Source: Candidatus Micrarchaeota archaeon
GTDB taxonomy: Archaea; Micrarchaeota; Micrarchaeia; Anstonellales; Anstonellaceae
Length of the DNA stretch: 64,000 nt
Assembly: GCA_026413965.1 (NCBI GenBank)
Contig: JAOAJY010000001.1
Location: 57,642-121,641 of the forward strand
Direction: 5' to 3'
The position numbers and the translations under genes are program-made. Every line of letters starts with the position of its first letter. The stretch's first letter is position 1. Of this stretch, positions 27,734-63,394 are shown piece after piece. The notes under the pieces are model-generated. The model ran no database searches. It was not told where the DNA came from and saw nothing but the letters and a program-made list of their open reading frames with translations.

Positions 27734-27943
27734 TCACTCTGGCGGCGGTGGAGGGGGCGCCTCGCCATCCCCAAAATCCTCAGGCATGAGAGGCGTGGCT
27801 TCTTTTTCCTGCTGTGCGCTTTTGACCATTTTTCCTTCTGGGGGAGCTGGGGGGCGGCTGTCATCTGCCGAGTCGCTGGGCTTGCTTTGAGCGCAGCCTG
27901 CCAAAAGCAGAAAGGCAGCCAAGAAAACCAATAGCCCTTTCAT
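27734..27943 (-). CDS. Small putative lipoprotein, proline/acidic-rich
   Basis: It starts MKGLLVFLAAFLLLAGC (lipobox-like LAGC) and ends PPPPPPE. It overlaps the upstream PKD gene by 4 nt. Confidence 0.5.
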   Translation of the reverse strand: MKGLLVFLAAFLLLAGCAQSKPSDSADDSRPPAPPEGKMVKSAQQEKEATPLMPEDFGDGEAPPPPPPE

Positions 27944-30201
27944 TGAACCGCCGCCTTTTTGCTTGTTTGCTGTGCCTGTGGCACGCACACGAATACCTGG
28001 CAGCCGTTTTTGTCAATATGAGAAAAAACAGGAACAAGCCCAGGCAGGCAGGTGGCGGTTGTTTGGCATGATGCTGGATAGACCTGCACCGTCAAAGCCG
28101 CCTGCGCGCTTGCGCCCTGCTCATCATAGACCGTCATATATACAGTGTAGGCGCCAGGCGCGCTGTATGAGTGGGTGGCTGATGCAGTCTGAACCACTGC
28201 CATAGGCTTGGGCATTCTTGGATTTTCATCTCCCCATATGAAAGAATAAGTCAGCTGCCTGCCCTCTGGGTCGTATGCTGAGATTGTCCAGGTTCCTTGC
28301 TGCCCAACAGCAAGCTGTGATGGCCCTGAGACGCTGGTGATGACTGGCGGGAGATTTTGCTGGATTTGGCGCTTGACGGTTATCACACCGCTTTCAGAAA
28401 ATGGCTCTCTGGAATGCATGTGTATGCCTACTCGGATTTTGTACTGCCCTTCTGGGAAATTTGATGGTATATTCCATGCTGCCTGCCCTGCCGAAAGCGG
28501 GTTGTTTCCGCAATCTATGTTTGTGGCTGCTCCGGTATTGACATTTATTGCCTGCACGCAGGAGAGCCTGCCATTCAAATCAGAGGAAACTGACCAGGCA
28601 ATCATGTAGGTTTGGCCTGCTACGAATTCCTCGCCTCCAATCGGAGAAGACACCTTTATGCTGTAGCTTGGAGCATTCCGGTAAACCTGAACCCTGTAGG
28701 TTGAGCTGGCAGATGCCCCTTGCTCATCCACAACTGTGAATGTTATGGTGTAAGTTCCTGCTGAATTGTAGGTGTGAGAGATGGTTGAGGACTGCTCTGC
28801 TGCAGCGCTTCTTCTTGCAAGCTCAGCAGGCTCATCTCCCCAAGTGACATAATAAGTCAGCTGCCTGCCCTCTGGGTCGTATGCTGAGATTGTCCAGGTT
28901 CCTTGCTGCCCAACAGTAAGCTGTGATGGCCCTGAGACGCTGGTGATGACTGGCGGGGGATTTGGCCTGGAAGGTTGCAGATATATTAGGGCGTCATTGT
29001 ATCCGCCATCAAATTTTATGCCGTCATCTGCTTCTATCGTGAATTTGTTTCCCTTCTGCGTTATGCTGAAATAATGCGGGTTTGTGGAAAAGGCTTTTTC
29101 GTACCATCTGCCATTCCATTGGGTTTGTATGGAAAGGACAACTTCCTCTCCCTCTTTCAGATAGCCGATAGGCGTGACTCTATTGACCCAATTATTGGCG
29201 CCTGTGAATGTCCCGAGATTTTTGAAATTCGGCTTTTCTACCGCAATGACCGAACTTCCCGAGGTGTCATACCATGCAACATTTATCTCGTATTCTCCAG
29301 ACTGCGGGATTATTATTCTCTGCTGCGGGGGCTCTGGAACAGGGGCAAGAAATACAGTGACGCTTATGCTTGCAGTCTCGCTTTCGCCTGCATCATCCAC
29401 AACTTTGACGACTATCTTATAGGTTCCTGCCGAATTGTATGTGTGGGTGAATGAAGCGGTCTGTGAGGCTGGCGTGCTGGCAGAGGATCCCTGCTTATTG
29501 AACTCGTCGCCCCAAGTGACATAATAAGTCAGCTGCCTGCCCTCTGGGTCGTATGCTGAGATTGTCCAGGTCCCTTGCTGCCCAACAGCAAGCTGTGATG
29601 GCCCTGAGATTTTGGTTATCACAGGAGGGAGATTGGGCTGAGGCGGGGATGGCGGCTCGTCCTTCCCAAATCCGAGCCTGCATGATGAGGCTGCCTTTAT
29701 CCAGTAAGCTTTGCCCGGCTCAAGCGTGCTTGAGTACCTGTATGGGCTTTGGGCAGGACCGCTTGCGTAATAATGCCAGGGGCCAGAGATTATCTTGCAG
29801 TCGCCTGCATAGTCTGTGATTTCTGCCTTGTGGGGCGGCGCCCCAACAAGATTCCATCCTGAAAAAAGCTCTTTGTTCGCAAAGATCGGCGAAGCTGAAT
29901 AAGCGTACCTGCACTCCCTTGTCCCCTTTATCCAATATCCCTCTCCTGGCTTAAGAACGGCTTCTTTGATGTATCCTGACTGCGAAAGCCTCCAAGCATA
30001 TTGGGAGGCACCGCAGATAAAAGCCAGCTCTTTGACAGGCAAATCTGCTGAAACTGAAATCATGTTCCATCCGGGATAGATTTGCACCTCATAGTTTTGC
30101 GGAGCAGGGAGGGTAAGCGCTGCAGCTGCGGGAAAAATAAGCAACATCGCAACAAGAATTGCCCCAAATCTGTTGCTTTCAAGATTCGCTTTTATTGCCA
30201 T
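27940..30201 (-). CDS. Secreted multidomain surface protein: double GWN...YWIK module, three PKD-like repeats, C-terminal 4-Cys module
   Basis: The signal peptide is MAIKANLESNRFGAILVAMLLIFPAAAA. The repeat PPVIT.(I/V)SGPSQL.VGQQGTWTISAYDPEGRQLTY..(T/I)WGDE occurs three times. The C-terminal end reads CQTTATCLPGLVPVFSHIDKNGCQVFVCVP. Confidence 0.8.
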   Translation of the reverse strand: MAIKANLESNRFGAILVAMLLIFPAAAALTLPAPQNYEVQIYPGWNMISVSADLPVKELAFICGASQYAWRLSQSGYIKEAVLKPGEGYWIKGTRECRYAYSASPIFANKELFSGWNLVGAPPHKAEITDYAGDCKIISGPWHYYASGPAQSPYRYSSTLEPGKAYWIKAASSCRLGFGKDEPPSPPQPNLPPVITKISGPSQLAVGQQGTWTISAYDPEGRQLTYYVTWGDEFNKQGSSASTPASQTASFTHTYNSAGTYKIVVKVVDDAGESETASISVTVFLAPVPEPPQQRIIIPQSGEYEINVAWYDTSGSSVIAVEKPNFKNLGTFTGANNWVNRVTPIGYLKEGEEVVLSIQTQWNGRWYEKAFSTNPHYFSITQKGNKFTIEADDGIKFDGGYNDALIYLQPSRPNPPPVITSVSGPSQLTVGQQGTWTISAYDPEGRQLTYYVTWGDEPAELARRSAAAEQSSTISHTYNSAGTYTITFTVVDEQGASASSTYRVQVYRNAPSYSIKVSSPIGGEEFVAGQTYMIAWSVSSDLNGRLSCVQAINVNTGAATNIDCGNNPLSAGQAAWNIPSNFPEGQYKIRVGIHMHSREPFSESGVITVKRQIQQNLPPVITSVSGPSQLAVGQQGTWTISAYDPEGRQLTYSFIWGDENPRMPKPMAVVQTASATHSYSAPGAYTVYMTVYDEQGASAQAALTVQVYPASCQTTATCLPGLVPVFSHIDKNGCQVFVCVPQAQQTSKKAAVQ
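28245..28350. repeat. Intragenic near-identical DNA repeat, copy A (PKD-like repeat core)
   Basis: The 106 bp differ from copy B by 1 nt (aataagtcagctgcctgccctctgggtcgtatgctgagattgtccagg...). Confidence 0.9.
28839..28956. repeat. Intragenic near-identical DNA repeat, copy B
   Basis: This copy shares the same core. It also shares the upstream ccccaagtgacat extension with copy C. Confidence 0.9.
29511..29609. repeat. Intragenic near-identical DNA repeat, copy C
   Basis: This copy shares the same core with 1 mismatch and diverges after gccctgaga. Confidence 0.9.
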
Positions 30202-30211
30202 TCAAATCACC

Positions 30212-31441
30212 TCAATTTGGAGGCATTGGAGGCGCCTCTTCTAAATTGCCATAAAGCCTGCATGAAGAACCCACTTTTATCCAGTAAGCTTTGCCTGGCT
30301 CAAGGGTCTGAGAGTATGCATAAGGGCTTGCGCCTGCGCTGGTGTCATAATGCCAGGGGCCAGAGATTATCTTGCAGTCGCCTGAGTATTCGGATATTTT
30401 GACCGTGCTGGACGGAGCCCCAACCAAGTTCCAGCCAGGAAATAATGGTTTGAGGGAAAGAGAATAGGCAGGCGCAGAAACCTCAAACTCGCAGCTTCTT
30501 CTGCCTTTTATCCAATATCCTGCTCCTGGCTCAAGGTACTCTTCTTTTGAGTATCCAGAGGGCAGAAGCAACCATGCCTGGGCAGATGTGCCGCACTTGC
30601 CAGAAAGCTCTTTCATTGAGAGCTTGGAATTGACTGGAAGGGAAACCATGTTCCACCCGTTTTTTATGTTCAAGACGAACTTTGCCTCATCTTGCGGGGG
30701 AAGCGGAGGCTCGCTTTGCTCAGCTCTGACTTTCACTTTCGCCCTTGCCTGCCCAACAAGGTGCTCCTGCTCAGAGCAGGCTCCGGCGCTATTGCAGCTT
30801 GAAAACAGGTAGTAGACTGAGATGGTCGCGAATTTCACGCCTGGCGAGATTGCTGTGAAATAGGCAGAAATGCTTGCGCTTTCGCCGCTGGAGAGCGTCA
30901 TGTAGTCTATCCTTTCTTGGAAGCTTTGGCGCTTTCCGCTGGATGATGCATGCGCTGGAAACGCCTTGCCAACGCTGTCAACAACCCTCAAGGATTGCTG
31001 CTCCTCTTTGCCCATGCCTTCTTGGATGCTTTTGCTTGCGAAAAAAGAGGGCTTGCCTGAAGAAAGTTCTGCAGCATCAGACAACTGCGTGATGATTTTC
31101 AGCCTGTAGATGGAGTCCGTGCGCCCGTCGCTGACCAAACTGACTTTTCCGCCCACAAAAATTTGCTGATTCTGTTGCGCTTCGGATGGCTCGGCATGTA
31201 TTGAAACCGATACTGTTGGCATATTGGCTGGCCTGCAGCCATAAATTTCGCACCCAAACTCATCAAGATGGGAAAAATATGGCTCATAGCCTAAGGCGCA
31301 TTTTGCCATTGAAATGCATCGCTCATCCGATTTTGCCTGAGCCTGTGGCACAAGCAGCAGGACTGCGATAAGCGCAACCAAACCGGCACTTCTCATCAAC
31401 AGATGAATCACCAGCCAAGCTTTTGCTCTGGGTTTCTCCAT
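30212..31441 (-). CDS. Secreted protein: N-terminal 4-Cys module, unknown middle region, C-terminal double GWN...YWIK module
   Basis: It has a signal-like MRSAGLVALIAVLLLVPQAQA, and the start may be that internal Met. It has CISMAKCALGYEPYFSHLDEFGCEIYGCRP. The C-terminal 165 aa or so are alignable to the N-terminus of the 753-aa neighbour, with 38-nt identical DNA patches. Confidence 0.7.
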   Translation of the reverse strand: MEKPRAKAWLVIHLLMRSAGLVALIAVLLLVPQAQAKSDERCISMAKCALGYEPYFSHLDEFGCEIYGCRPANMPTVSVSIHAEPSEAQQNQQIFVGGKVSLVSDGRTDSIYRLKIITQLSDAAELSSGKPSFFASKSIQEGMGKEEQQSLRVVDSVGKAFPAHASSSGKRQSFQERIDYMTLSSGESASISAYFTAISPGVKFATISVYYLFSSCNSAGACSEQEHLVGQARAKVKVRAEQSEPPLPPQDEAKFVLNIKNGWNMVSLPVNSKLSMKELSGKCGTSAQAWLLLPSGYSKEEYLEPGAGYWIKGRRSCEFEVSAPAYSLSLKPLFPGWNLVGAPSSTVKISEYSGDCKIISGPWHYDTSAGASPYAYSQTLEPGKAYWIKVGSSCRLYGNLEEAPPMPPN

Positions 31442-31465
31442 CGGCTCTTATTTAAAAAGAAAACT

Positions 31466-31507
31466 CGGTCCGGCTGCGGAACCCATATATAAGCTTTTCG
31501 CGGTCCG
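31466..31507. promoter_or_regulatory. Two copies of the palindromic heptamer CGGTCCG flanking a TATA-like element
   Basis: cggtccg occurs at 31466-31472 and 31501-31507. catatataag at 31483-31492 lies between them, in the 82-nt gap between the wHTH gene and the secreted-protein genes. Confidence 0.35.
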
Positions 31508-31523
31508 ACGCGTTGCGCAAAAT

Positions 31524-32615
31524 TCACCTGAAAATTTGCCCGTTTATTTCCGCAAGAAGATTCCTCCCGAATGGATGCAGCTTGACTATGTTTTTCCGCT
31601 CAAGCGAGCGCAGGTTGCGAAGCAGGCTTGTTTTTGGAATCAGCAGCTTGTGCTGAATTTGCGAGCGCTTCGCCCTCCCGCCTGACCGCATAAGGAACAG
31701 CACTATCTCCCTCTCCCGCTCGGAAAGCGTGGATAGGACCGCAGTTGCCTTTGGGCTGGATGCATCATAAATGCCTGCATCAGTAAGCTGCTTGGGCGCG
31801 CGATTGCCAGGCTTTTTGGCTGCTTTGCCCTTGGCTGGAGCTTTGTTTTCTTTTTTCTCTTGCTGTTTGGAGGCTTTCATTGAGCCCATGCCCCTAAGGA
31901 AAAGCCACAAGCCAAAAGCAGCAGCCAGGCCCACTATAGCCATAAGCAAAAGGTCATCTTCTGAGGACTTGTTTCCCATCTCAATTGAAACCATGGTGGT
32001 TTCTCCTGCAACTATGCTAGCCTCCTGCGAGCCTGCCTTCCCCTTGTGGTAGGCAGAAACCAGGCAAGAGCCTGCCGGCAGGGCTTTGAACAGGAACTCG
32101 CCTGCCTCTCCTGCCAAAACTTTGCTCCCTCCATTTATCCTTGAATAGTTGAAGGCAGAGGAAGGGCAGGAGACCGAGATTGTGGCTTGCGGGACAGGAG
32201 AATCTTTGCTGGCTGCCCTGCCTGCCAGGCTTCCTGCTGGATAAAAAATCACTGTTAGGTTGCTTTTGCCTGGGGCTGCGAAATCCTCGGTTGCCGCAAA
32301 ATCTATGCCGCTTGTGGATGGAAAATCAATCAAGGCATCCAGCTGGTGGCTCCCCCTATCAACAAACAAGACAAAGCCGCCAGAGTAATCAGTGATTGCG
32401 CGGTAGATGGTGTCGGACTTTTCAGAGCGCAGGAGAAGCACCACTGGAACCTGCGAAGCTGGTGTTCCGTTTGAGAATACTGCATAAACCCAGACCGTAT
32501 TTGGGAGGCTGGGGACAGAAGGAGGGCCTTGCTGGGCTTCTTGATGGAAAGGGTCGTCTTGGGCAAAAAGGATAGAAAAGGCGAAAAAAGCTAGCAATAC
32601 AGGCCTCATGAGCAT
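31524..32615 (-). CDS. Membrane-tethered winged-helix protein: signal peptide, two CarboxypepD_reg-like beta-sandwich domains, a TM helix, and a cytoplasmic wHTH
   Basis: The signal peptide is MLMRPVLLAFFAFSILFAQDD. The TM helix is LLLMAIVGLAAAFGLWLFL, followed by a K-rich linker. The C-terminal LSEREREIVLFLMRSGGRAKRSQIQHKLLIPKTSLLRNLRSLERKNIV is a MarR/ArsR-like HTH. Confidence 0.65.
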   Translation of the reverse strand: MLMRPVLLAFFAFSILFAQDDPFHQEAQQGPPSVPSLPNTVWVYAVFSNGTPASQVPVVLLLRSEKSDTIYRAITDYSGGFVLFVDRGSHQLDALIDFPSTSGIDFAATEDFAAPGKSNLTVIFYPAGSLAGRAASKDSPVPQATISVSCPSSAFNYSRINGGSKVLAGEAGEFLFKALPAGSCLVSAYHKGKAGSQEASIVAGETTMVSIEMGNKSSEDDLLLMAIVGLAAAFGLWLFLRGMGSMKASKQQEKKENKAPAKGKAAKKPGNRAPKQLTDAGIYDASSPKATAVLSTLSEREREIVLFLMRSGGRAKRSQIQHKLLIPKTSLLRNLRSLERKNIVKLHPFGRNLLAEINGQIFR

Positions 32616-40845: not shown

Positions 40846-41553
40846 ATGCAGGCATCATGCAGAGGACAGGGAGCAACGGAGTATTTGGTACTTCTTGCGA
40901 TTGTCTTGATAATAGCCATGGTTGCAGTTGCCCTCCTTGGATTTTTCCCAGGCATGGCAGGAGACGCCAAGCTTGCGCAAAGCAAGGCTTATTGGCAGTC
41001 TGCAAGCCCTATTGCGATAGTGGATGGCGCTGCTTCTAGATTCTATGGAGCGCACAGTCAGATACTTCTAACTTTGCAAAACAATGGCGCCACGCCGGTT
41101 GAGCTGGTGGCTGTTGGGCCTATAAGAAGCCCTTGGACATACACCATAACGCATAATGAGTATGGGCAGATAACTAAACAAGGAAAGTATGCGTTTTTCA
41201 GCCCTGGATGGTTCAGCACCGGCTATGGACCAGATTTGGAAGGCACGTGGAGAGGATATGTTGCGCCACCAGAAGGAAATGGTTGGGATTACTATCAAGA
41301 AAAGCTGGTCATTTCTCCCGGAGAGAAAATCACAATTGGATTTTATGCATCTGCGCACGACCCTTCGCTATCAGACTCCTATCCATACACCAATCCTTGC
41401 AGTTTTGGAGAAGAAGCGGTTTCAAAATACTACGAGTTCAAGCAATTCAACATATACTATGTCTCCTACGCTGAAAATGGAGAAAAGCTTTTGAAAAGGC
41501 AGGCTGGCTCAAAACCCCTCGTCTTATCATGCACTGAGGGCGAATTTTGGTAA
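40846..41553 (+). CDS. Archaeal type IV pilin-like protein (class III signal peptide)
   Basis: The N-terminus RGQGATEYLVLLAIVLIIAMVAVALLGF fits the prepilin QGA-(T/I)EYL pattern. Confidence 0.6.
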   Translation: MQASCRGQGATEYLVLLAIVLIIAMVAVALLGFFPGMAGDAKLAQSKAYWQSASPIAIVDGAASRFYGAHSQILLTLQNNGATPVELVAVGPIRSPWTYTITHNEYGQITKQGKYAFFSPGWFSTGYGPDLEGTWRGYVAPPEGNGWDYYQEKLVISPGEKITIGFYASAHDPSLSDSYPYTNPCSFGEEAVSKYYEFKQFNIYYVSYAENGEKLLKRQAGSKPLVLSCTEGEFW

Positions 41554-43089: not shown

Positions 43090-45294
43090 TCAGACATAGT
43101 CTGAGCATACCGGCGCGAATGGATTTCCGCAGTAAAACACAGCCGCAGCCTGATTGTTTGTGTAGTCAATTTCCTGTATGCTGGGGTTCCTTGGCAGGTT
43201 GGCTTCTGCAACCACCCTTTTCAGCCCTGCTGACGAGCATATGCAGGTGAATGACAATGGGGAGGAAGTTTGCCCGGCGTTGAGCGGAGGGGTTTGCCGC
43301 ACCTGGTCCTCGCCGTTTGCGGTGCAGTTTGCCCCAAACAAGGTGGTGCTGGACGGTACCGACACGTTCTGGTTCCCCTTGTTTGCGACACTGAGGCTTA
43401 TGCTGAGGCTTCCGCCAATCGGAGTTATGATGCGCGATGGAGACATGCCTGATATTACGTAGTCAGGGCCTATTCCTTGGACCACCAAGACGGGATTGGC
43501 GCAGGAAAGTGATGGGAAGCGGGCATCCTCGCTTGATGCGTTGATTCTTCCTGATTGGGGAACTGGCGCGTTTTGTGTAGAGAAATTGGTGGTGGGGCGA
43601 ATCATGCTAGGAGTCCGCTCAGGATTGAGCCTTCCGCCAATTATGTTGGTTGACCAAATCAGCCGCGGGCAGCCCACAAGCCCAGGAACCCCGGTTTTGG
43701 TGCAGTTTGCCTCAACCAAAGCCCAGTCATTTGGAAGAAACAGGTTGGAATGGTTCACCAGCCCGCACACCATTCGGTCAGGACGGGGGGAGAACAGAAG
43801 CAGGACCTCGCATGATGCTGAGCACTCCTCCGCATTCGCGCAGGATATTGCTATTTTTCCTGGCTGCACTGATGGCGGCTCGGCGGAAGGAGAGGTGAAA
43901 AGCGAAAAGACTGGCGAGGGAGCAGCAGGCGTGGAGCTGGGATTGAGAGATGCGCCTGTCAGGTTGGTTGTCCAGTTGAGAGCAGGGCACAAGTCAAGAT
44001 CGCCATTTTTGATGCATGAGGCTTTCACTTGCGCAGTCTCATTTGGGAAGAAAACAGGCCCGTGATTGACAAGCTCGCATGAAAGAGCGTATGCGCTTGC
44101 CTCAGACACCCTGACCTTCACTGCAAGCGCCGTGCTGTTGTTGCAGTCCTTCAAGCCAGTGTTTGTGCAGTCAGGAGAAGTGGTTTTTGACCGGATGTCC
44201 AGAACCAAGTCATACGTTCCAGGAGGAGTGCCCTGCGGCACAAAAACCGTGCCGTTGATTTGCCTGCTTGAGCCTGCAGGAACCACAAAAGGCAGGCTGG
44301 GCGAGGATATTTGAAGGTTGGAGAAAGTGCTCCCTGCAAGCGAGATTGAGCTTACTGAAAGGTTCCTGTTCGCCCCGTTGTTTAGGGTGAAGCTGAATGA
44401 GACTGCTTTGCCTGGGGTTGTGGATACGGTGGGCGCAGGCGAGGACGGATAAAGCGAGCAGGAGAATGGATTTTCCACTCTGAGGTAGGCTGTTTCGCTG
44501 GAGAATTCCGGGCTGAAACTGTCATTTATTACTGCATAGACTGTAGAGATGCGATTGAGGCTCGGATTGACTATATTCCTGATGGGGGCTACGCACCTGT
44601 TTATGTCTATCACGCCTCTTACTGCGTGCTGGCCAAGAGGCAACACCAAATCATTTTTGGAAAATGAGCCTGTGAAAGGCCGGGAGTATTCGGTGTTGCC
44701 CACAATGATTTTGCCGGTTGCGTCGCAAATCATGCCTATGAAAGCCTGGTATTTTTGCCCGTTGTTGTAAAATCCATAGGGATTGCCGCCATTTCCCATG
44801 TGCTGGCGGTATTTTATGCCGACCTCTTTTTCATAAGAAGAATAATCCGTTATGCCTATGGAGGCAAGGTAGTTTTGCCATGTTTGATTCGGGCTCCATT
44901 CCCATTTTCTTGGAACTCCTGAATCGGCAAATTGTCTCAAGCTTTGCACTTGCTGGGTGGTGGACCAGCGGATGGGGTAAATGCCTCCAGGCTGGTTGTA
45001 GGCGGAAATCGGATCGTTTTGGGAAAGGGCTCCGCTTGCTGTCCCTCCTTCAAAGATGCTCGGGTTTATCCGCCAGCCTCCAGAGGAAGTTAGATTTATT
45101 TGGGTTGGGCTTCCTGCGCAGACGCTTTCAGGAACCGAGATGGTTGGAAGGGCATCCATATCGCTTTTCAGATAAGTATTGTTCTCCGGGCTTTGTGTTT
45201 TCCAATGCATAGCGAATTGCGCAGAAGCGGAGAAGACTGCTTGTGAAAGCAAAGCGCAGGCAAGGCAAAGAAAAAAAATTCTGCTCTCCCTCAT
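43090..45294 (-). CDS. Large secreted surface/adhesin-like protein (internal Cys-containing repeats, CARDB-like C-terminal region)
   Basis: The signal peptide is MRESRIFFLCLACALLSQAVFSASA. The module C.LVNH..(F/L)F.PN..A.V.A.C.K.G...CP.L.W(T/S)TN..G..LNP is duplicated. The tail reads EIDYTNNQAAAVFYC. The start was set at the ATG at 45294. Confidence 0.65.
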   Translation of the reverse strand: MRESRIFFLCLACALLSQAVFSASAQFAMHWKTQSPENNTYLKSDMDALPTISVPESVCAGSPTQINLTSSGGWRINPSIFEGGTASGALSQNDPISAYNQPGGIYPIRWSTTQQVQSLRQFADSGVPRKWEWSPNQTWQNYLASIGITDYSSYEKEVGIKYRQHMGNGGNPYGFYNNGQKYQAFIGMICDATGKIIVGNTEYSRPFTGSFSKNDLVLPLGQHAVRGVIDINRCVAPIRNIVNPSLNRISTVYAVINDSFSPEFSSETAYLRVENPFSCSLYPSSPAPTVSTTPGKAVSFSFTLNNGANRNLSVSSISLAGSTFSNLQISSPSLPFVVPAGSSRQINGTVFVPQGTPPGTYDLVLDIRSKTTSPDCTNTGLKDCNNSTALAVKVRVSEASAYALSCELVNHGPVFFPNETAQVKASCIKNGDLDLCPALNWTTNLTGASLNPSSTPAAPSPVFSLFTSPSAEPPSVQPGKIAISCANAEECSASCEVLLLFSPRPDRMVCGLVNHSNLFLPNDWALVEANCTKTGVPGLVGCPRLIWSTNIIGGRLNPERTPSMIRPTTNFSTQNAPVPQSGRINASSEDARFPSLSCANPVLVVQGIGPDYVISGMSPSRIITPIGGSLSISLSVANKGNQNVSVPSSTTLFGANCTANGEDQVRQTPPLNAGQTSSPLSFTCICSSAGLKRVVAEANLPRNPSIQEIDYTNNQAAAVFYCGNPFAPVCSDYV

Positions 45295-45302
45295 GAAACC
45301 CA

Positions 45303-48300
45303 CTAGCGCTGCGGGTAAGACCGTGTGTAACTCGCCCCGCCTCCAAGAACTAAAGGAATTGGAATTCCTACTGTGACATAGTATTGGGTAGAATTCCCTT
45401 TCCCAAAACTTACACTAGGAGTAATTTTGAACTCCCATACATTTATGTCTGCTCCTACTCCGGCCTGCAAATGGAAATCATTCAAATTAGATCCCCCAAA
45501 CTGCGCGCTGGTAGTAACATATGGGTTAACCGGGCCTTGTTTATGCTGAATAGTTCCTAGTAGCGTGGCAGTTGGGGGAAGGGGCATATTGAGAGCTTGG
45601 TTCAATCCTGCTTGGACTATCACATCTAGCTTGTCATAAATCTCAAATCTTTTTGTGGCATTAAGATTCAAAGACACTGTGGATGATTGGTAGCTGTATG
45701 ATTCATTTGTGGCGGGCGAAGTGGAAGAATAACTTGTACGATCAACACTTAACCCAACACCAACTAGAAGGTTTTGCGGAACGTTGAACCACATCAGAGC
45801 CGCCTTTCTAGCATACCGTTCAAAATTGGTTTCCTGCCCTAAAAAGACCACCTTGCCGGTATTTACATCTATGCCGACATTAAGGAGGATGTTGTTGTTT
45901 GTATCAACTTGGTAGATTCCTCCGGTGAACTCAACGTGGTGGCTGCGGACTGAAAATTTTATGTAATTGGAAAGTTCTTTAAAGTTATTTAGCTGTATGG
46001 TCTGCTGACCAAACTGCGAATTTTTGAAAAGCTCTGAATCTTCCCTGATACGCTTCCGCGCTTCTTGGAACTTGCCTTGCTCCAAGAGCGAAAAGTATTG
46101 TGTTAGCTTGTCAATGCTACCATCAAATGCGTTAAGCCAGGCCTCATCGTTTTTCACACGAATAAAAACATCATGTATCATGTTCTTAAATTTATCATCT
46201 GGCAGTTTGTTCTTATTCATTAATTCATAGTAATAATTTATCGCTTTGTTGAGGTCGGTTATATTTTCAAATCCAAAAGTGTCTAACAGGCTTGAAGAAT
46301 AACCCACAATGCCGTTGAACTTTTGAAAATTGATAGACAGTTGGTAATCAAACTGTGGTTGGATGCGTGGAATCTCAAGGGGGACAACATTCTGGATATC
46401 ATCTTTTGGAAATTCAATTGTTGGAACTGTTTTCAACGTAAGCTGCTTTTTCGTGCTCCAGACCGGCTTTGTTGCCAAGCCTTCACTGGTTTCTGCATAA
46501 GCAATGAATCTGCCATCCAAGATAGGCGTATTGGCAAACAGCTCTGATTTCACAGACCACTTCTCAGGTTCTTTTCCATTTTTATTGACGAGCAAAAGGT
46601 GCCCAGGATCAACTCGGAAAACTTGCTTTTCGCCATCATTGCGCACAAATTTGACATATTCTGAAGGGACCTCATAAAGCTTGTCCTCCTCGCCGGAATG
46701 CAGCTTGCCGTAAAAGAAAACCTTAAGCTTGTCTTTTTCATGGTTGAATTGGAGCGGAATGCCGTTTAAGCTGTATTGCACTGAAAGCTCCACAGTGTTT
46801 CTCTCAGGCTGAGATATCTCTATATCCAAAGCATATTTACCTTCAATGGAAGAGCTGATTGACCTGCCGCCTCGGGCAGTGAGGGCAACGACAAAAGCGT
46901 TTTGGTTTTTCTCATCGCGCATGCCTTCCTTGGAGGCGTCTTTTCTCATGAAGTAATTTGACAGTTTTGAGATGCTATTTTCATCTGCTTTCATTGAATA
47001 CCTGCCTGTTTGCTGGTTGTATAAGACCACGTCATTGAGCTTGCTATAGCACGATACCGCGTCTAGATAGCCCTCCTTTTTCAAATTTTCCAAATCGTGC
47101 ATAAAGTTGTTGAAGTTGTCGGCTGCCTCCTGCTTGTTGAATCCGTAGCGCTTTGATAGGAGATCTTCAAAAGACTTGAATCCGGATATTTTGTTTGCCT
47201 TCAAAAACTTATCAAAAGCTGCCCTTTGGCTGCTGCTGAGGGAGCTTGAATTTGGAAGGTTCTCTTGGAAAAATTGGACTTTTGCCCTGGTTTCATATTT
47301 TATGAAATCTTTGCCCATTTCTATTAATTTTCCATTCACCTCTTGCAGATAACTTTCGCATTTGCTTGCCCTTTTGAGAGCCAGCTGGTAGTTTTTCTCA
47401 GCCTGGTCCAAAAATTCGCTTAGATTCTTGCCATTATAAATCAGCTCCATTGTTGCACTGCCAGTGAACGTGAAAACTATGTTACTTTGGTTGCATTTTT
47501 TCACAAAATCCTGCCCTTCTTCACTTGCAAAAAAAATGGCAAGCTCGTCCTGGTTTGAGTTTCTGTTTCTACCTACAATATCCTGGTTTGAGTTTATGTT
47601 TCTCTTTACAATATTGTCGTAATCGTATCCCATGGACAAAGCAATCTTCTTGACTTGCCCCCTTACTGCGAACTTGGGGCTATATTCCGCATCAATTTCT
47701 TCTGAGGTGAACTTCCTGCTGTACTTCAATTGGTGTAACATTTGCGACTTTGACTTGCCTTCTGTTGTTTCTTTTTGGTGGTAAGGTAATAGGTTGTTGA
47801 TGGCGTCCTGGATCAACATTCTGCCGGCGGCGTCTTGGTTGGTTTGCAACTCTGCAGAAATTTTGTAGGGAATTGATGATGTTGTGCCATATTCAGATGT
47901 TGTAGAAGTGGGATGTTTGGTCGGAACATGCACCTTTTCATCTATTTCAGCACGTCTTGGGCGAAAGTAGAGAGATATTGCATGCTTGCTGTTTCCAAGA
48001 TTGACATATTGGTTCTGTGAGTTGTCTATTATTGTCTCAACCATCTTGCCAAACTCCTTGTAGGCTGAAAAAGAGTATTCCCCACCCTCTCCGAAAGTGC
48101 CATTTGGATTGATCAGGTATTGCGCAAGAACCTGGTATTTGTTTTGCTTGACATAATCCAGAATTTCTTTTTTCCCTTTCAGTTCTTTCAGCTTTTCTTC
48201 GTATGCGATTATGGAAAAACTATAATTAGGGTCTGAAAGAAGAGAACGTATGAAATAGCCGAGATTTTCCTTTTTATTCATGCCAACTGAAACCATTTCG

Positions 48301-48707
48301 CCTTCCGTGAGCCTTCTGTTTTCTGCTAATTTGTTTTGCGCTTCAGCCAGCTTTTTTACTGACTCATGCCCGAGCTTGTACAATTCTACGCATTTTATGT
48401 AGTTTTTGGCTTTTTGAAGCTCAACTTCATCAGGCTCACCAAGCTGCGCCTGCAAGCTGATGCCTTTGCCGCCAAGCCAATCCTGCCAAGCCTTGCAGAA
48501 AGCAAGAGCGCGCCCGTAATCCTTGTCTGCCTTTTTTGAGCCCAAGCCTGAGATGAAGCTTTGAAGAGAAACGGAAAAATTTTTGAGGCTGGCGGCATCG
48601 TTTTGTTTTCCTTGCCTATGCAAATTGTAGAACTCGTCCTGCAAAGATGACAGCTGCGCTGCAATAGAGGTGCTTTGATCCTGCTGCGCCCTGAACGCTT
48701 GACCCAT
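45303..48707 (-). CDS. Giant orphan protein (1134 aa), low GC, no N-terminal signal peptide, beta-strand-rich C-terminal region
   Basis: It is the longest uninterrupted ORF in the window. A hand count of 46201-46260 gives 19/60 G+C, while the 5' end (48400-48707) is GC-normal. The C-terminal 200 aa or so show alternating hydrophobic/polar strands (WEFKITPSVSF, QYYVTVGIPI). Confidence 0.7.
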   Translation of the reverse strand: MGQAFRAQQDQSTSIAAQLSSLQDEFYNLHRQGKQNDAASLKNFSVSLQSFISGLGSKKADKDYGRALAFCKAWQDWLGGKGISLQAQLGEPDEVELQKAKNYIKCVELYKLGHESVKKLAEAQNKLAENRRLTEGEMVSVGMNKKENLGYFIRSLLSDPNYSFSIIAYEEKLKELKGKKEILDYVKQNKYQVLAQYLINPNGTFGEGGEYSFSAYKEFGKMVETIIDNSQNQYVNLGNSKHAISLYFRPRRAEIDEKVHVPTKHPTSTTSEYGTTSSIPYKISAELQTNQDAAGRMLIQDAINNLLPYHQKETTEGKSKSQMLHQLKYSRKFTSEEIDAEYSPKFAVRGQVKKIALSMGYDYDNIVKRNINSNQDIVGRNRNSNQDELAIFFASEEGQDFVKKCNQSNIVFTFTGSATMELIYNGKNLSEFLDQAEKNYQLALKRASKCESYLQEVNGKLIEMGKDFIKYETRAKVQFFQENLPNSSSLSSSQRAAFDKFLKANKISGFKSFEDLLSKRYGFNKQEAADNFNNFMHDLENLKKEGYLDAVSCYSKLNDVVLYNQQTGRYSMKADENSISKLSNYFMRKDASKEGMRDEKNQNAFVVALTARGGRSISSSIEGKYALDIEISQPERNTVELSVQYSLNGIPLQFNHEKDKLKVFFYGKLHSGEEDKLYEVPSEYVKFVRNDGEKQVFRVDPGHLLLVNKNGKEPEKWSVKSELFANTPILDGRFIAYAETSEGLATKPVWSTKKQLTLKTVPTIEFPKDDIQNVVPLEIPRIQPQFDYQLSINFQKFNGIVGYSSSLLDTFGFENITDLNKAINYYYELMNKNKLPDDKFKNMIHDVFIRVKNDEAWLNAFDGSIDKLTQYFSLLEQGKFQEARKRIREDSELFKNSQFGQQTIQLNNFKELSNYIKFSVRSHHVEFTGGIYQVDTNNNILLNVGIDVNTGKVVFLGQETNFERYARKAALMWFNVPQNLLVGVGLSVDRTSYSSTSPATNESYSYQSSTVSLNLNATKRFEIYDKLDVIVQAGLNQALNMPLPPTATLLGTIQHKQGPVNPYVTTSAQFGGSNLNDFHLQAGVGADINVWEFKITPSVSFGKGNSTQYYVTVGIPIPLVLGGGASYTRSYPQR
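47548..47613. repeat. 33-bp tandem duplication inside the giant ORF
   Basis: tcctggtttgagtttctgtttctacctacaata is followed by tcctggtttgagtttatgtttctctttacaata (4 mismatches). The copies encode KRNINSNQDIV and GRNRNSNQDEL. Confidence 0.85.
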
Positions 48708-57985: not shown

Positions 57986-58903
57986 TTGGGCGTGCAGACT
58001 CTGGCAGAGCATTTGGAGAAGCATGTGGAGGACCCGGCTTTGCGCCACCTGATAAACTCGTTCGCATATATTTCGCTTGATGCCCAGCACCATTTCCCAA
58101 AATACCTCAGGGGCACGCTTGGGGACAGGAACAAGTACGGAGAGGCAGTCGCCCAGCTGGACTCGTGGGTGAACGGATACCTTTGCGACAGCCTGGTGAA
58201 GACTGGCGTGGTCAGGAAAATCTATTCGGAGGAGCTGGATAGCCCGCTGATTGCCACTTCCCAGAGCGCCCCTTTCGTGGTCACTTTGGACCCTTTGGAT
58301 GGCTCGTCAAACATTGTGAGCAACAATGCATTCGGCTCAATTGTTGGGGTATATAGGGAGGATTTGCCCCAAAAGGGAAGGAAGCTTGCCGCTGCTTTCT
58401 ACAAGCTTTATGGCCCTGTGAACACCTTCGTATATACCGTAGGCAAAGGGACGCATGAATTTGTGAAGCATTATGATTCGGAAGGGAAGGCGCAGTTTAT
58501 GCTTTTGGCAGAAAGCCTTTCTCTGCCTGAGCCAGGGGAGGTTTTCGGGATAGGGGGGGACCCGCTTTCCTGGGAGCCAAATTTCCTCAAGTTCGCAAAA
58601 GACTTGTTCAGGGTGGAAAAGCTCAAAGTCCGCTACTCTGGGACATTTGTTGCTGATTTCTCCCAGGTTCTTCACCGCGGAGGAATATTCTCCTATCCTG
58701 CGACCAAAAAAAGCCCGAAGGGCAAGCTCAGGCTGTTTTACGAGGCTCAGCCAATGGCATTCATAATGGAGCAGGCAGGAGGGGCAAGCTGGTCTGGCAA
58801 GGAATCGCTTTTGGATGTGGAGGAAAGCGATGTTGATGCGAGGACTCCTCTTCACCTGGGCAACAGCTACCTGATTGGAAAGCTCAAGCAGGCATGCCCT
58901 TAG
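57986..58903 (+). CDS. fbp: Fructose-1,6-bisphosphatase class 1
   Basis: It has LDPLDGSSNI, RYSGTFVADF, and LFYEAQPMAFIMEQAGG. The start is TTG in the track. Confidence 0.85.
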   Translation: MGVQTLAEHLEKHVEDPALRHLINSFAYISLDAQHHFPKYLRGTLGDRNKYGEAVAQLDSWVNGYLCDSLVKTGVVRKIYSEELDSPLIATSQSAPFVVTLDPLDGSSNIVSNNAFGSIVGVYREDLPQKGRKLAAAFYKLYGPVNTFVYTVGKGTHEFVKHYDSEGKAQFMLLAESLSLPEPGEVFGIGGDPLSWEPNFLKFAKDLFRVEKLKVRYSGTFVADFSQVLHRGGIFSYPATKKSPKGKLRLFYEAQPMAFIMEQAGGASWSGKESLLDVEESDVDARTPLHLGNSYLIGKLKQACP

Positions 58904-60084
58904 GGCTGCTCCCACTCTATCTCATAATACTCGTATTTTGAGCCTGGGACCTCTATCCTCTTGACTGCGTAATATGTGACCGAGGTTTCCCTGTCGCATA
59001 TGGCAAGCAGAAGCTCAAGCCCTATGCGCTTGCACTGCTCAATCGCCCATGCAAGCTCTTCCCCTCCTATGTATTCATCCTCTGAAAGCGAAAACATGAG
59101 ATATTTTGGCTTGCCGGTCTTGGGGTTCTCAATCCCGCCGCCCAAGCGGTGGAAAAGCAGAAAGTCAAGGGTGGTGTGCAAATCCCCTTCCTTCTTTCTT
59201 TTGCGCTTTTTGGCCTCTCCTGGTATGGCTAGGACAAAGGTCTTTTTGACTGAATGCGCCACCCTTATGGCGCGCGCCCATTCAGATATGAGAAGCTTGG
59301 AGGCGCGCGGAAAGCAGTGGATCACGTGCTTTGAGTGGATCCACTCGCCGTTGCTTCGGACAGGCGAAGCTCCTGGGAAATATAGGCGGAAATGCGTGCC
59401 GAACTTGAACCCTGTTTTCAGGACAAACCCGTTCAGCCGCCAATCCTCATAGACCTCATACATATTGAGGAAGTACTTGTGCCTCTTCTTCGCAGCCTTG
59501 ACAACCTCCTCTACAGAGGAATTGATGAGCCTCAGCCCTGCGTGCTTTGCTAGAAAAAGCGTCTCAAACACATCCAGCTTTGAAAGCTTCCCTCTCTGCT
59601 CTGCTTTGTACGAGCCAAACTGCCCAAGCCAGTATCTTTCATAAAGCTCCCTGCCTGCAGCCTCATCATCAATCACAGACCAAAGGTCGTCTGGATAAAA
59701 CCTTGCCTGAAGGGAATATCGGTCCAGCTGAAGCTTTCCTGCCGGATATTTCTTCACGCTGTTCCTTCCGTATTTCTCGCAGATTTCAGTGACTTGCCGG
59801 GCTATAAGCCCGCGGTCGCGCCAGTCTTTGTACGTGAAATACCTTGCCATCTGCTTTTTGCCTTCAAAATGCTTCGCCACATCATTGAACTTGTACTCGT
59901 TCAAGGCAGAGTCAAAGCAGCGGGCATTCCGTATGTCCATAAGATAGAGAGCCTCCTCAGGAAAAAGGTGGATTTTGCCTTTTTTCATGCACCCATAATG
60001 CCCGTTTGCCAGCGAGGAGACCGATTCCGGCTGGGAAACAACAAGCGCTTTTTTGCGCGGGTCAAATTCTATTTGGATTGCCAA
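58900..60084 (-). CDS. endA: tRNA-splicing endonuclease, long three-unit-like form
   Basis: The catalytic unit reads YEDWRLNGFVLKTGFKFGTHFRLYFPG...HSKHVIH. An extra N-terminal EndA-like unit reads ALYLMDIRNA...YKDWRDRGLIARQ. A C-terminal structural unit reads YLMFSLSEDEY...ETSVTYYAVKRIEV. The start was provisionally set at the TTG at 60084, which is preceded by GGAGAGGTG. Confidence 0.8.
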   Translation of the reverse strand: MAIQIEFDPRKKALVVSQPESVSSLANGHYGCMKKGKIHLFPEEALYLMDIRNARCFDSALNEYKFNDVAKHFEGKKQMARYFTYKDWRDRGLIARQVTEICEKYGRNSVKKYPAGKLQLDRYSLQARFYPDDLWSVIDDEAAGRELYERYWLGQFGSYKAEQRGKLSKLDVFETLFLAKHAGLRLINSSVEEVVKAAKKRHKYFLNMYEVYEDWRLNGFVLKTGFKFGTHFRLYFPGASPVRSNGEWIHSKHVIHCFPRASKLLISEWARAIRVAHSVKKTFVLAIPGEAKKRKRKKEGDLHTTLDFLLFHRLGGGIENPKTGKPKYLMFSLSEDEYIGGEELAWAIEQCKRIGLELLLAICDRETSVTYYAVKRIEVPGSKYEYYEIEWEQP

Positions 60085-60160
60085 TGAAACACCTCTCCGC
60101 CTGCGTGAAAAAATGGCTTGCGGAAAGCCTTTGCGGGCGCAAGCATTTGCCCAAGAGTGT

Positions 60161-60174
60161 TTAAATAGCGAACG
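60161..60174 (+). promoter_or_regulatory. TATA-containing 14-mer TTAAATAGCGAACG upstream of taw1
   Basis: It ends 14 nt before the ATG at 60188. An identical 14-mer recurs at 63456-63469. Confidence 0.5.
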
Positions 60175-60187
60175 GAAAAGAAGCATT

Positions 60188-61267
60188 ATGGCAAGGGAGA
60201 GGTCCGCAAAAGGCAGGGGCAAGCATTACGCGAAATTGAAAAAAGCCGCCCCAGCCCTGCCAGAGGAGATGCTCAAGCTCCTAATAAGGCAGAAATACCA
60301 TCTTGCAGGGCAGCACTCGGCAGCCAAGCTTTGCCACTGGTCCCACTCTGCGCTGAAAGGGGGGGAAAGCTGCTACAAAAGCAGGTTTTACGGGATAGCC
60401 TCGCACCGCTGCCTGCAATGCACCCCTGTGCTCCTATTCTGCAACCATGCCTGTGTCTTTTGCTGGAGATTCATGCCAGAAAAGGACAAGTACGGAAGCA
60501 TTGGCAAAAAGTTCGCATGGGATGAGCCGGAGAAAATTGCCGAATGGCTGATTTCCGCGCAAAAAGAGCTGGTCTCAGGCTATGGAGGAAACAAGAAGGT
60601 GAGAAAAGAATTGTATGAGCAAGCCTGCGAGCCAAAGCATGTTGCCCTATCGCTCACAGGAGAGCCTGCCATGTACCCCTACATTGGAAGGCTTCTGAGG
60701 GAATTCCACCGGAGGGGAATGACCACCTTTTTGGTGACAAATGGCACCTTTCCAGAAAGGATGGAAAAATGGGAAGAGATGCCAACACAGCTTTATGTTT
60801 CAATGGTGGCCCCAAATGAAGATGCCTACTTGAAGTCAATCCGGCCGGCTGAAAGGAATTTGTGGAAAAAGTACCTCAAAGGCTTGGAAGTGCTTCGCAA
60901 GCTTGGGGAAAAGACCCGCACCGTTTTGCGGATGACTCTTTGCCGAGGAGTGAATGATTTTGGCTTGGAGGGCTACGCCAGGCAGATTGCCATCGCCAAG
61001 CCGCACTATGTGGAAGTGAAAAGCATGGTTTTTGTGGGAGGAGCAAGGCAGCCTGGGCGGAACCTCTCCCTTTCAAGCATGCTTTCCATGGAGGAGATTA
61101 GGCAGATTGCCTCAAAGCTATCGGATATGACAGGCTATAAGATAAGCTGCGAGCATGCGCCATCAAGAGTGGTGCTTTTGTGCAAAGACAAGCAAGCTGA
61201 AGAAAGCAGAATCATAAGGTGGGTGGATGGACAGGAAGGGCAGCAGGATTCGCGCCATAATATTTGA
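60188..61267 (+). CDS. taw1: tRNA 4-demethylwyosine synthase Taw1/TYW1 (radical SAM)
   Basis: It has CHWSHSALKGGESCYKSRFYGIASHRC and CNHACVFCWR. The start was set at the ATG at 60188. Confidence 0.9.
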   Translation: MARERSAKGRGKHYAKLKKAAPALPEEMLKLLIRQKYHLAGQHSAAKLCHWSHSALKGGESCYKSRFYGIASHRCLQCTPVLLFCNHACVFCWRFMPEKDKYGSIGKKFAWDEPEKIAEWLISAQKELVSGYGGNKKVRKELYEQACEPKHVALSLTGEPAMYPYIGRLLREFHRRGMTTFLVTNGTFPERMEKWEEMPTQLYVSMVAPNEDAYLKSIRPAERNLWKKYLKGLEVLRKLGEKTRTVLRMTLCRGVNDFGLEGYARQIAIAKPHYVEVKSMVFVGGARQPGRNLSLSSMLSMEEIRQIASKLSDMTGYKISCEHAPSRVVLLCKDKQAEESRIIRWVDGQEGQQDSRHNI

Positions 61268-61903: not shown

Positions 61904-62692
61904 ATGCCTTCTTTATTTTGCAAAGAACACAAAAAAGCGCAAAGCGGAACGGAACAATTAGGAATATTGGCGGTCGTTTTGATAATTGGGCTGGTGGGGA
62001 TATCAGTTATTTGGCAATCCGCTAGCTCAGCTTCAGGCATCTCAGAAAGCTCATCTGAAATCTACTGGAAAGAGATGCGCCCTGTGAGGGTTCTTGAGGC
62101 AGGGCTTGCGGCTGATTCTGAAATATTTTTTGTTGTTGAAAATTCTGGGCCTGACCCGATAACTATAAACAGGATAGGCATAGGGGAAGCATCTGCGTCT
62201 TTAAGAGAGTATGGATCAGACATGCCTTTAACAAGCATTTATCTTGCCCCAGGAGAAATTAAGAGAGTGGTTGCAAGCTCCTTTGGGTCTTTTGATTGCA
62301 TGGTTGGCAAAAAAAAGGACGTGGCTCTTTCCATAGGCTACAGGACACAATACGGAGACGCCAGGGTTCTCAAAGGCGAGAAGAGCTTAGCCATACGCTG
62401 CAATATGAATAGCGGCGCTTATGCGAGCTCCAACCAAACCTCTTGCGCTTCTCAAGGGCAGGGCTGCGGCTCAGGCATAAGCTGCTGTGAAGGTTTAGCC
62501 TGCATCGACAATACGTGCGAATACTGCAGAGGAGAAGGCAAGGACTGCAAAGATAGCAGTTGGTGTTGCGAAGGTTTAGCTTGCATGGAAGGTTATTGCC
62601 AATACTGCAGAGGAGAAGGAGGAGAATGTGCGGATAATAGCTGGTGCTGCGAAGGTTTAGCTTGCATGGAAGGTTATTGCAAGTTTTATTGA
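61904..62692 (+). CDS. Type IV pilin-like protein with three C-terminal knottin-like six-cysteine repeats
   Basis: It has the class III signal-like KAQSGTEQLGILAVVLIIGLVGISVIW. The C-terminus carries three copies of C-x6-C-x5-CC-EGLAC-x4-C. Confidence 0.6.
   Translation: MPSLFCKEHKKAQSGTEQLGILAVVLIIGLVGISVIWQSASSASGISESSSEIYWKEMRPVRVLEAGLAADSEIFFVVENSGPDPITINRIGIGEASASLREYGSDMPLTSIYLAPGEIKRVVASSFGSFDCMVGKKKDVALSIGYRTQYGDARVLKGEKSLAIRCNMNSGAYASSNQTSCASQGQGCGSGISCCEGLACIDNTCEYCRGEGKDCKDSSWCCEGLACMEGYCQYCRGEGGECADNSWCCEGLACMEGYCKFY
62444..62689 (+). repeat. Three tandem units of about 81 bp encoding the six-cysteine module
   Basis: Units 2 and 3 share long identical DNA stretches (tgcgaaggtttagcttgcatggaaggttattgc; atactgcagaggagaagg). 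Confidence 0.85.
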
Positions 62693-63145: not shown

Positions 63146-63394
63146 TCAGCTGCACCTTGATGAAACGGGGTTGCAATTTCCGGATGCGCATTCTGAATCA
63201 TATGAGCAGAATTCGCCTGCCTTTTTTGCCCGGGCGTAGCTTTCCTCAGAGGCATTCAGTATGTAATCTGCCTTTTGCTCTGCTTTTTCAGCGGCTTTAT
63301 TGGCGCTTCTCAAAAGCACGCTTGCCACAAGAGCAGATATGCCAAGTATTATGACCAAAATGACAAGCATCTCGACTGAAAGCTGCCCGCGCAT
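63146..63394 (-). CDS. Small type IV pilin-like protein with a 4-Cys tail
   Basis: It starts MRGQLSVEMLVILVIILGISALVA and ends CSYDSECASGNCNPVSSRCS. Confidence 0.55.
   Translation of the reverse strand: MRGQLSVEMLVILVIILGISALVASVLLRSANKAAEKAEQKADYILNASEESYARAKKAGEFCSYDSECASGNCNPVSSRCS

Follow-up and report, generated by a model that had tools for sequence, protein, structure and literature searches.

A gene near the end of a 64 kb stretch of Candidatus Micrarchaeota DNA (contig JAOAJY010000001.1, positions 57,642 to 121,641; 64,000 nucleotides, hereafter the window) encodes a 262-amino acid protein which very probably combines an archaeal pilin-like carrier with a tail of disulfide modules resembling inhibitor cystine knot (ICK) peptides and Dickkopf proteins. 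The last 82 residues held 18 Cys, all within 79 residues, arranged in three consecutive C-x6-C-x5-CC-x4-C-x4-C units joined by linkers of only two residues (EY and QY). The open reading frame (ORF) and its three units were exactly as described in the original prediction, which had been made from the DNA letters and a list of ORFs. The protein matched, with 100% identity, the NCBI entry N3F07_00685, deposited as “MAG: hypothetical protein” (MAG, metagenome-assembled genome) from a Candidatus Micrarchaeota archaeon. A word-index homology search with the whole protein retrieved only the protein itself, and an NCBIfam scan gave no match. An exhaustive HMMER search of 1.84 billion representatives retrieved 269 homologues at E<=1e-3.

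The pilin-like N-terminal part

The N-terminus of the protein (KAQSGTEQLGILAVVLIIGLV) aligned column for column with the [KR][GA]/QGATEYL leaders (slash, predicted cut) and hydrophobic-helix N-termini of more than 120 homologues. The leader KA/QSGTEQLGILAVVLIIGLVGISVIW had [KR][GA] in front of the cut, Gln at +1 and Glu at +5, followed by a hydrophobic stretch of about 20 residues. Cleavage by a prepilin peptidase was predicted after Ala12, and would leave a mature protein beginning Gln(+1)...Glu(+5). Among the best 150 of the 269 relatives, 121 had the leader [KR][GA]/Q-G-A-T-E-Y-L and a hydrophobic helix. Most relatives were 150-230 amino acids long, and the matches listed for a profile search with alignment A1 (23 sequences, the target and homologues) were mostly short pilins. 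In this alignment, KA/QSGTEQLGILAVVLIIGLV of the target was aligned with the class III leaders of the homologues, and the conserved columns included a YW motif, N80, Y146 and the Cys132/Cys166 pair. The Pfam model Class_IIIsignal (PF04021) matched 10 of the 23 aligned homologues (best E 1.8e-5).

The AlphaFold2 model obtained with A1 (mean pLDDT 87.5) had the long N-terminal helix (residues 16-56) followed by a beta-sandwich (strands between 61 and 165) which is typical of the pilin fold. The best Foldseek matches in the PDB included the type IV pilus of Pyrobaculum calidifontis (8fk7, E 4e-5), the Sulfolobus AAP pilus (8q30), the Halobacterium archaellin (9eq7) and the S. islandicus pilus (6nav). 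By its modelled fold, the N-terminal part belongs to the archaeal type IV pilin/archaellin superfamily. The pilin-like N-terminus proposed initially was thus supported by the alignment of the leader with homologues and by the modelled fold. The linker that follows shared the motif NMNSGAY with the closest relative (P0002) and with P0007.

Probable recent duplication of a cysteine module

Tandem Repeats Finder detected a period-81 array at 62483-62680 (2.4 copies, score 240). Units 2 and 3 were identical at 66 of 81 nucleotides (81.5%) and at 22 of 27 amino acids, and their bases matched without interruption through the CCEGLACMEGYC part, whereas unit 1 was 52-58% identical to units 2 and 3 at the nucleotide level. 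When all six frames of the 64 kb window were translated, a loose ICK-type regular expression had no other match, and the array is far beyond chance.

The closest relative of the protein, P0002, encoded in a MAG of Candidatus Anstonellaceae (Micrarchaeota), was 52% identical (E 4e-67) and had two modules: its module 1 (CKREGEGCNTASDCCSGLWCGDNTC) corresponded to unit 1 and its module 2 (CLGEGESCKEDSWCCSGICRDKKC) to both units 2 and 3. The two modules of this syntenic ortholog, the DNA identity of units 2 and 3 and their identical CCEGLACMEGYC run indicate that the third unit probably arose recently by tandem duplication in the lineage of the target; loss of a module in the P0002 lineage would be less parsimonious. 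The young age attributed to this part of the array from the start therefore stands.

Predicted fold and probable disulfide pairing of the modules

All three units showed the six-Cys framework C-C-CC-C-C with loop lengths typical of ICK peptides. The Pfam model Toxin_12 scored 28.2 bits (cut-off 21), as the sum of three weak stretches, and Toxin_7 matched the tail weakly. Dickkopf_N scored 24.4 bits, just below its cut-off of 25, and was matched only at profile positions 21-51, the half corresponding to the C-subdomain; a complete bipartite Dickkopf_N domain with 10 Cys at gathering score was not found in the target. Searched as a single sequence against the sequences of the PDB, the protein matched the tandem toxin DkTx at E ~0.035. 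A profile of the modules (alignment A2, 19 three-module segments) matched the cysteine-rich domain CRD1 of Dickkopf-4 (Dkk4) at E 1.6e-5, DkTx at 3e-3, and then single ICK toxins. The C-subdomain of Dkk4 CRD1 (C RGLRRR C QRDAM CC PGTL C VNDV C) has exactly the spacing of the archaeal units. In the mapped disulfides of Dkk4 CRD1, the N-subdomain has the bonds C1-C3 and C2-C4, the C-subdomain has C5-C8, C6-C9 and C7-C10, and the latter subdomain is similar to the ICK toxin Jingzhaotoxin-XI (1.3 A; PMC6078440). Renumbered within the six Cys of the C-subdomain, its three bonds are I-IV, II-V and III-VI.

The AlphaFold2 model of the tail alone (pLDDT 85.8) had one small beta-hairpin per module, with predicted strands at 198-201/204-207, 225-228/231-234 and 252-255/258-261. 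Foldseek matches for the multi-unit tail were DkTx, Dkk4 CRD1, Dkk1 CRD2 and Draxin, and single units were superposed on Pn3a, ProTx-I, SGTx1, hanatoxin and EETI-II (0.8-1.4 A over 25-33 residues, probability 0.8-0.99; for Pn3a, ProTx-I, SGTx1 and EETI-II, 0.8-1.1 A over 25-30 residues). The ICK-type framework recognised in the original prediction is thus supported by the Toxin_12 score, by superposition at about 1 A on spider knottins and by the spacing of the Dkk4 CRD1 C-subdomain.

Cys pairing was analyzed in 745 modules from relatives fitting a C2...C3-X-...C5...C6 anchor, a sample in which related sequences inflate the statistics. Cys1 and Cys4 were both present in 627 modules, both absent in 98 and discordant in 20, some of the latter being explained by a first loop of 7 residues. 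The joint presence and loss of both Cys fits a I-IV disulfide. By analogy with Dkk4 CRD1, which has identical spacing, the modules would have the full I-IV, II-V, III-VI pattern, and III-VI would thread the ring formed by I-IV and II-V, making a knot. The four-Cys form, without C1 and C4, would then be equivalent to the two-disulfide hairpin seen in the N-subdomain of Dkk4.

Distribution of the module and of the architecture

CC-type modules were present in 35 of the 121 class III relatives found within the best 150, with two or more modules in 22 and three or more in 11. The original prediction was not aware of such units on an archaeal pilin; the architecture is not rare, and dozens of metagenomic class III pilin-like proteins carry them, in numbers from 1 to ~24. 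At the upper end of this range were Micrarchaeota proteins of ~850 amino acids (L003, L049, L054) with a KG/QASPEYL class III leader, the same pilin domain and ~24 modules; another protein of this type (L057) was cut by the edge of its locus.

The species genomes of GTDB were also scanned with a degenerate DNA pattern that describes two canonical modules in tandem. The scan gave 107 loci, 12 of them archaeal, including 8 from Micrarchaeota. Several matches, from Streptomyces and Bacillus, in short ORFs or in frames consisting of more than 60% Cys, were discarded as spurious. After translation, most of the real matches were from Myxococcota (Sorangium, Polyangiaceae, Byssovorax, Myxococcaceae and “delta proteobacterium” MAGs) and had an ordinary signal peptide followed by 5-15 modules. 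Elsewhere among the archaea, the modules formed part of large surface proteins anchored in the membrane at their C-terminus (L053, L074) or came after other domains (L013, L038, L090). Pfam appears to have no dedicated model for these modules, which were caught by Dickkopf_N, Toxin_12, conotoxin models, EB and DUF7107; the long Micrarchaeota protein reached 74.8 bits with Dickkopf_N through multiple half-domain matches.

The Myxococcota proteins with 5-15 tandem six-Cys modules (e.g., L005 from Sorangium cellulosum So ce26; P0005, P0013, P0029 and P0056) had secretion or lipoprotein signals. Long arrays of the four-Cys variant (x-G-x-x-C-x5-C-x-x-G-L-x-C-x5-C), matching DUF7107, EB and Dickkopf_N, were also seen in Myxococcota. 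Outside the window, the same source contig encoded a second pilin-like protein (P0026, N3F07_00890), whose Cys-rich tail (24 Cys) was irregular and differed from that of the target.

Judged from these sequences, the module is a general extracellular building block, akin to the EGF-like repeats of eukaryotes. Its membership in a common prokaryotic Cys-repeat family, abundant in surface proteins of Myxococcota and DPANN, is one half of a two-part outcome that the original prediction had listed as refuting it; the fold is left unrefuted, since the family itself is ICK/Dickkopf-like.

Start codon and conserved locus

The public model of N3F07_00685, located on a 219 kb contig, has 241 amino acids and starts at an internal TTG (residue 22, 61967). 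It lacks the class III signal, which is cut off by this start. In the locus of P0002 (L001) the gene order was the same, with TYW1 and a HAD hydrolase followed by the pilin-like gene. The gap between the HAD stop codon and the ATG was 2 nt in both loci, the element CATAAAAA was kept at an equal distance from the ATG, and the DNA for K-A-Q-S was conserved. Position 61904 was taken as the true start on account of these three features; the start of the public model was probably mis-called and its N-terminus truncated. A promoter role of CATAAAAA is possible. The content of the window was archaeal housekeeping DNA, with genes for a tRNA-splicing endonuclease, TYW1, RadA, PGK, eIF-6, L31e and the SRP receptor.

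Proposed mechanism and alternative explanations

The protein may work as an archaeal type IV pilin of modular build, with a stalk or adhesin stiffened by disulfides on display, a mechanism which, taken as a whole chain, we regard as likely with moderate confidence. A prepilin peptidase of the PibD/EppA type would cut the class III signal after Ala12, leaving Gln+1 and Glu+5. The hydrophobic alpha-1 helix would serve as a membrane anchor first and would then be packed in the core of a type IV filament, with the predicted Ig-like domain on the outside. The C-terminal 82 residues would fold into three mini-domains of the ICK/Dickkopf-CRD1-C-subdomain type, each probably locked by three disulfides, and these would form a short stiff rod, resistant to protease, acid and heat, projecting from the tip or the surface of the pilus. 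The rod may act as a spacer and/or a binding surface for attachment to the host cell, to glycans or to other surfaces. Its role would be comparable to that of the modules grafted onto bacterial “modular pilins”, which are displayed probably at the tip (PMC8179133). The number of modules appears to shift fast by tandem duplication (2 in the ortholog, 3 in the target, ~24 in paralogous families), and may tune the reach and surface of the rod.

Several observations weigh against a modular pilin. The target itself had no PF04021 match at E<=1 in the Pfam scan, so that its class III membership rests on homology to members of the class, and its signal (QSGTEQLGIL) departs from the family consensus (QGATEYLVLL). 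The Foldseek matches of the N-terminal part included the non-filament proteins FlaF (4p94) and FlaG (5tuh). The gene follows housekeeping genes (TYW1, HAD), outside any pilus operon, and no gene for a prepilin peptidase, a pilus ATPase or a TadC/ArlJ platform was found among the window ORFs scanned. Regarding the tail, its Foldseek E-values were not significant (all >= 0.02), which is expected for domains of 27 residues, and the AlphaFold model may be biased towards known ICK folds. The FlaF and FlaG matches and the lack of pilus machinery nearby would suit a surface protein with a class III signal that is processed or helix-anchored but does not polymerise. Such a protein would be a stalk or receptor tethered to the membrane, similar to the substrate-binding proteins of the Sulfolobus bindosome or to FlaF/FlaG, with the modules holding a binding surface off the cell. 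The same modules were present on the C-terminally anchored proteins of L053 and L074, and the very long relatives (~850-1300 amino acids) would be bulky for the body of a filament. Against this, the best fold matches were true filament subunits, the family was dominated by proteins of 150-230 amino acids, typical of pilins, and bulky modular pilins are known to fit at pilus tips (PMC8179133). A tethered protein is considered rather unlikely.

A toxin or inhibitor head, suggested in the original prediction, would have its knottin units acting on a membrane channel or a protease of the host, either displayed on the pilus or released. Toxin_12 scored above its cut-off, the motif CCEGLAC is shared with gating-modifier spider toxins, the closest tandem-ICK structure was the bivalent DkTx, and Micrarchaeota are dependent on host cells. 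However, structurally unrelated surface proteins from archaea and free-living Myxococcota carried 5-24 copies of the same module, which is the behaviour of a scaffold, the two-residue linkers had no processing sites, and the sequence match to Dkk CRD1 was stronger than that to any toxin. The use of one module as an all-purpose spacer or stalk by a wide variety of surface proteins, anchored as well as secreted, in archaea and Myxococcota points to a generic extracellular scaffold and favours a structural or adhesive role over a toxin role, which makes a toxin-like head improbable. The Cys might alternatively be metal or redox ligands, in a metallothionein-like tail, a Zn/Fe-binding element or an electron-transfer appendage. 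The density of 18 Cys in 79 residues would agree with this, and the habitats of many DPANN are poor in oxygen, a condition less favourable to disulfides outside the cell. Nevertheless, the pairwise loss of Cys1 and Cys4 fits disulfide partners and not metal sites with four Cys, the spacing was identical to that of a domain with mapped disulfides (Dkk4 CRD1), the ICK-like model was confident with one hairpin per unit, and the tail had no His/Asp pattern and no CxxC motif; metal or redox ligands therefore seem very improbable. The sequence comes from a metagenome-assembled genome, in which the copy number of repeats could be mis-assembled. The conserved syntenic ortholog, the 269 homologues and the confident structure prediction make a chance ORF or an assembly artefact practically negligible.

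Neighboring genes and other regions of the window

Three other genes with class III signals were found in the window (Table 1). The 127-amino acid neighbour had an ortholog at the same position of the Anstonellaceae locus (L001 2632-3087), with the signal RG/QISAEALLL; the arrangement in which the pilin/knottin gene faces a small pilin gene is therefore conserved. The C-terminal module of the 82-amino acid mini-pilin (CSYDSECASGNCNPVSSRC) was a variant of the target's module without C1 and C4. In the Pfam scan, this mini-pilin reached 17.7 bits with Class_IIIsignal and 22.8 bits with Conotoxin, neither score attaining its cut-off, and the “Conotoxin” match was rejected as probable mimicry by a signal plus Cys. 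An A/T-rich, TATA-like box (TATTTAATTTTTAG) was seen ~55-68 nt upstream of its ATG. The paralogue without Cys modules was 27% identical to the target over residues 11-92 (BLASTP, E 1e-10).

Table 1. Positions of the pilin/knottin gene, its predicted parts and the other genes with class III signals in the window. The slash marks the predicted cut.
Feature	Position	Strand	Description
Whole gene, modular pilin-like protein	61904..62692	+	ORF with ATG start, 262 aa plus stop
Possible archaeal TATA-like element, CATAAAAA	61875..61882	+	Within the 3' end of the HAD gene, 22-29 nt before the ATG
Predicted class III signal leader, residues 1-12, MPSLFCKEHKKA	61904..61939	+	Alignment with KA/QSATEYL and [KR]G/QGATEYL homologues
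Predicted hydrophobic N-terminal alpha-1 helix and extension, residues 13-56	61940..62071	+	AlphaFold2 helix 16-56; helix included in Foldseek matches
Predicted Ig-like beta-sandwich, pilin globular domain, residues 57-167	62072..62404	+	pLDDT 89-98; Foldseek
Linker, residues 168-180, NMNSGAYASSNQT	62405..62443	+	N-Q-T sequon; block of lower pLDDT (66)
Cys module 1, residues 181-205, CASQGQGCGSGISCCEGLACIDNTC	62444..62518	+	Orthologous to module 1 of P0002
Cys module 2, residues 208-232, CRGEGKDCKDSSWCCEGLACMEGYC	62525..62599	+	Best Dickkopf_N stretch, 203-233
Cys module 3, residues 235-259, CRGEGGECADNSWCCEGLACMEGYC	62606..62680	+	Probable recent duplicate of module 2; best Toxin_12 stretch, 235-261
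Small pilin-like protein, 127 aa	62762..63145	-	AG/QLSMEALLL signal; convergent neighbour of the target
Mini-pilin, 82 aa	63146..63394	-	RG/QLSVE signal, helix; single four-Cys module CSYDSECASGNCNPVSSRC at 63152-63208
Paralogous pilin-like protein without Cys modules	40846..41553	+	RG/QGATEYLVLLAIVLIIAMV (RG/QGATEYL); adjoins RNase HII

Other regions of the window encoded further secreted proteins. A run at 27940-32615 (minus strand), which looks like a surface-protein cluster, encoded three of them: one of 753 amino acids with three PKD domains, one of 409 amino acids with no Pfam match and one of 363 amino acids with a CarboxypepD_reg-like domain. Two of these proteins shared the motif C..G.(E/V)P(Y/V)FSH(L/I)D..GC(E/Q)(I/V)(Y/F).C (slash, alternative residues). 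The region 43090-48707 (minus strand) encoded a secreted protein of 737 amino acids with 23 Cys and a protein of 1134 amino acids, neither with a significant Pfam match; the C-terminal segment of the latter was beta-rich and resembled a porin or an S-layer protein. Finally, the TYW1 ORF as listed (TTG at 60053; 60053-61267, plus strand) overlapped the tRNA-splicing endonuclease gene (58900-60222, minus strand) by 170 nt. The TYW1 ortholog of L001 starts at the equivalent of residue ~47 (MARERSAKGRGKHYAKL), and the true start of TYW1 is therefore probably near 60191.

Significance and comparison with known systems

In the literature searched, no ICK/knottin or Dickkopf-like modules were found on archaeal pilins and no cysteine-rich pilins were found in DPANN, which is absence of evidence only. 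The sequences themselves are already public, with an automatic PF07740 tag on the target protein. With the module present in tandem arrays on archaeal pilin-like proteins and in numerous surface proteins of Myxococcota, the fold has a wider distribution than was known, and the idea of the “modular pilin” is extended to archaea. The family provides concrete candidate adhesins for the poorly understood contact between DPANN episymbionts and their hosts, and the naturally concatenated knottins of archaea associated with extremophiles, probably stable to heat and acid, could serve as scaffolds.

The abundance of ICK- and disulfide-directed-hairpin-type modules in prokaryotic surface proteins also bears on the origin of knottins and of Dickkopf/colipase, and gives a prokaryotic setting to the path that has been proposed to lead from the disulfide-directed hairpin through ICK to the Dickkopf/colipase domains. 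As a speculation which we hold to be rather doubtful, the six-Cys module and its four-Cys, disulfide-directed-hairpin-like variant might be an ancient and abundant extracellular repeat of prokaryotes sharing ancestry with eukaryotic knottins and Dickkopf/colipase, and the arrays on DPANN pilins might be hyper-stable host-attachment adhesins of tunable length. If this shared ancestry were true, the ICK fold would not be a eukaryotic invention.

With regard to the tail, ICK peptides of the Toxin_12 family (ProTx, hanatoxin, SGTx1) and DkTx share with the target the spacing C-x6-C-x5-CC-x4-C-x4-6-C, the motif CC-x-G-L-x-C and the predicted C-terminal beta-hairpin. They differ in that the toxins are free secreted peptides, whereas the modules of the target are domains of a 262-amino acid prokaryotic surface protein. 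The tandem arrangement is like that of DkTx, but the lobes of DkTx are visibly further apart in the alignments than the modules of the target, with their two-residue linkers. Dkk4 CRD1, the best profile match among solved structures, is a tandem of a four-Cys and a six-Cys subdomain, like the mixed prokaryotic arrays; unlike the Dickkopf proteins, the target has a prokaryotic host and no Wnt/LRP context. The secreted cysteine-rich repeat proteins (SCREPs) are also tandem small disulfide-rich domains in secreted proteins, noted in bacteria and eukaryotes (PMC6262176). SCREP is a broad architectural label, and in that work “archaea” appears only in a cited title and no pilin fusion is described (PMC6262176).

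With regard to the carrier, the archaeal type IV pilins (PF04021/UPF0333; processed by EppA or PibD; 8fk7, 8q30, 6nav) have, like the target, the [KR][GA]/Q...E(+5) leader, the hydrophobic helix of ~20 residues, the long alpha-1 helix followed by an Ig-like beta-sandwich, and several small paralogues per genome. The target differs from them in the additional 82-residue array of three six-Cys units, in a leader too divergent for PF04021 and in its position outside a pilus operon. An architectural parallel was found in the bacterial modular type IV pilins, for instance Streptococcus sanguinis PilB (vWA) and PilC (lectin), in which a pilin carrier is joined by a short linker to an extra module; examples with multiple repeats exist, and a role in tip display and adhesion has been proposed (PMC8179133). 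That survey covers bacteria only and does not mention archaea; its available text does not include a tandem ICK/Dickkopf-like array among the modular-pilin architectures (PMC8179133). The pilin of the target is archaeal and, in contrast to the bacterial ones, the IPR012902 N-methylation motif is not expected in it. The target nevertheless has the arrangement that defines modular pilins, an N-terminal pilin module and a C-terminal non-pilin module connected by a short linker. Given that the sequences are public and the PF07740 tag was already on the protein, this architecture is best described not as a new kind of system but as a previously undescribed variant of the modular type IV pilin.

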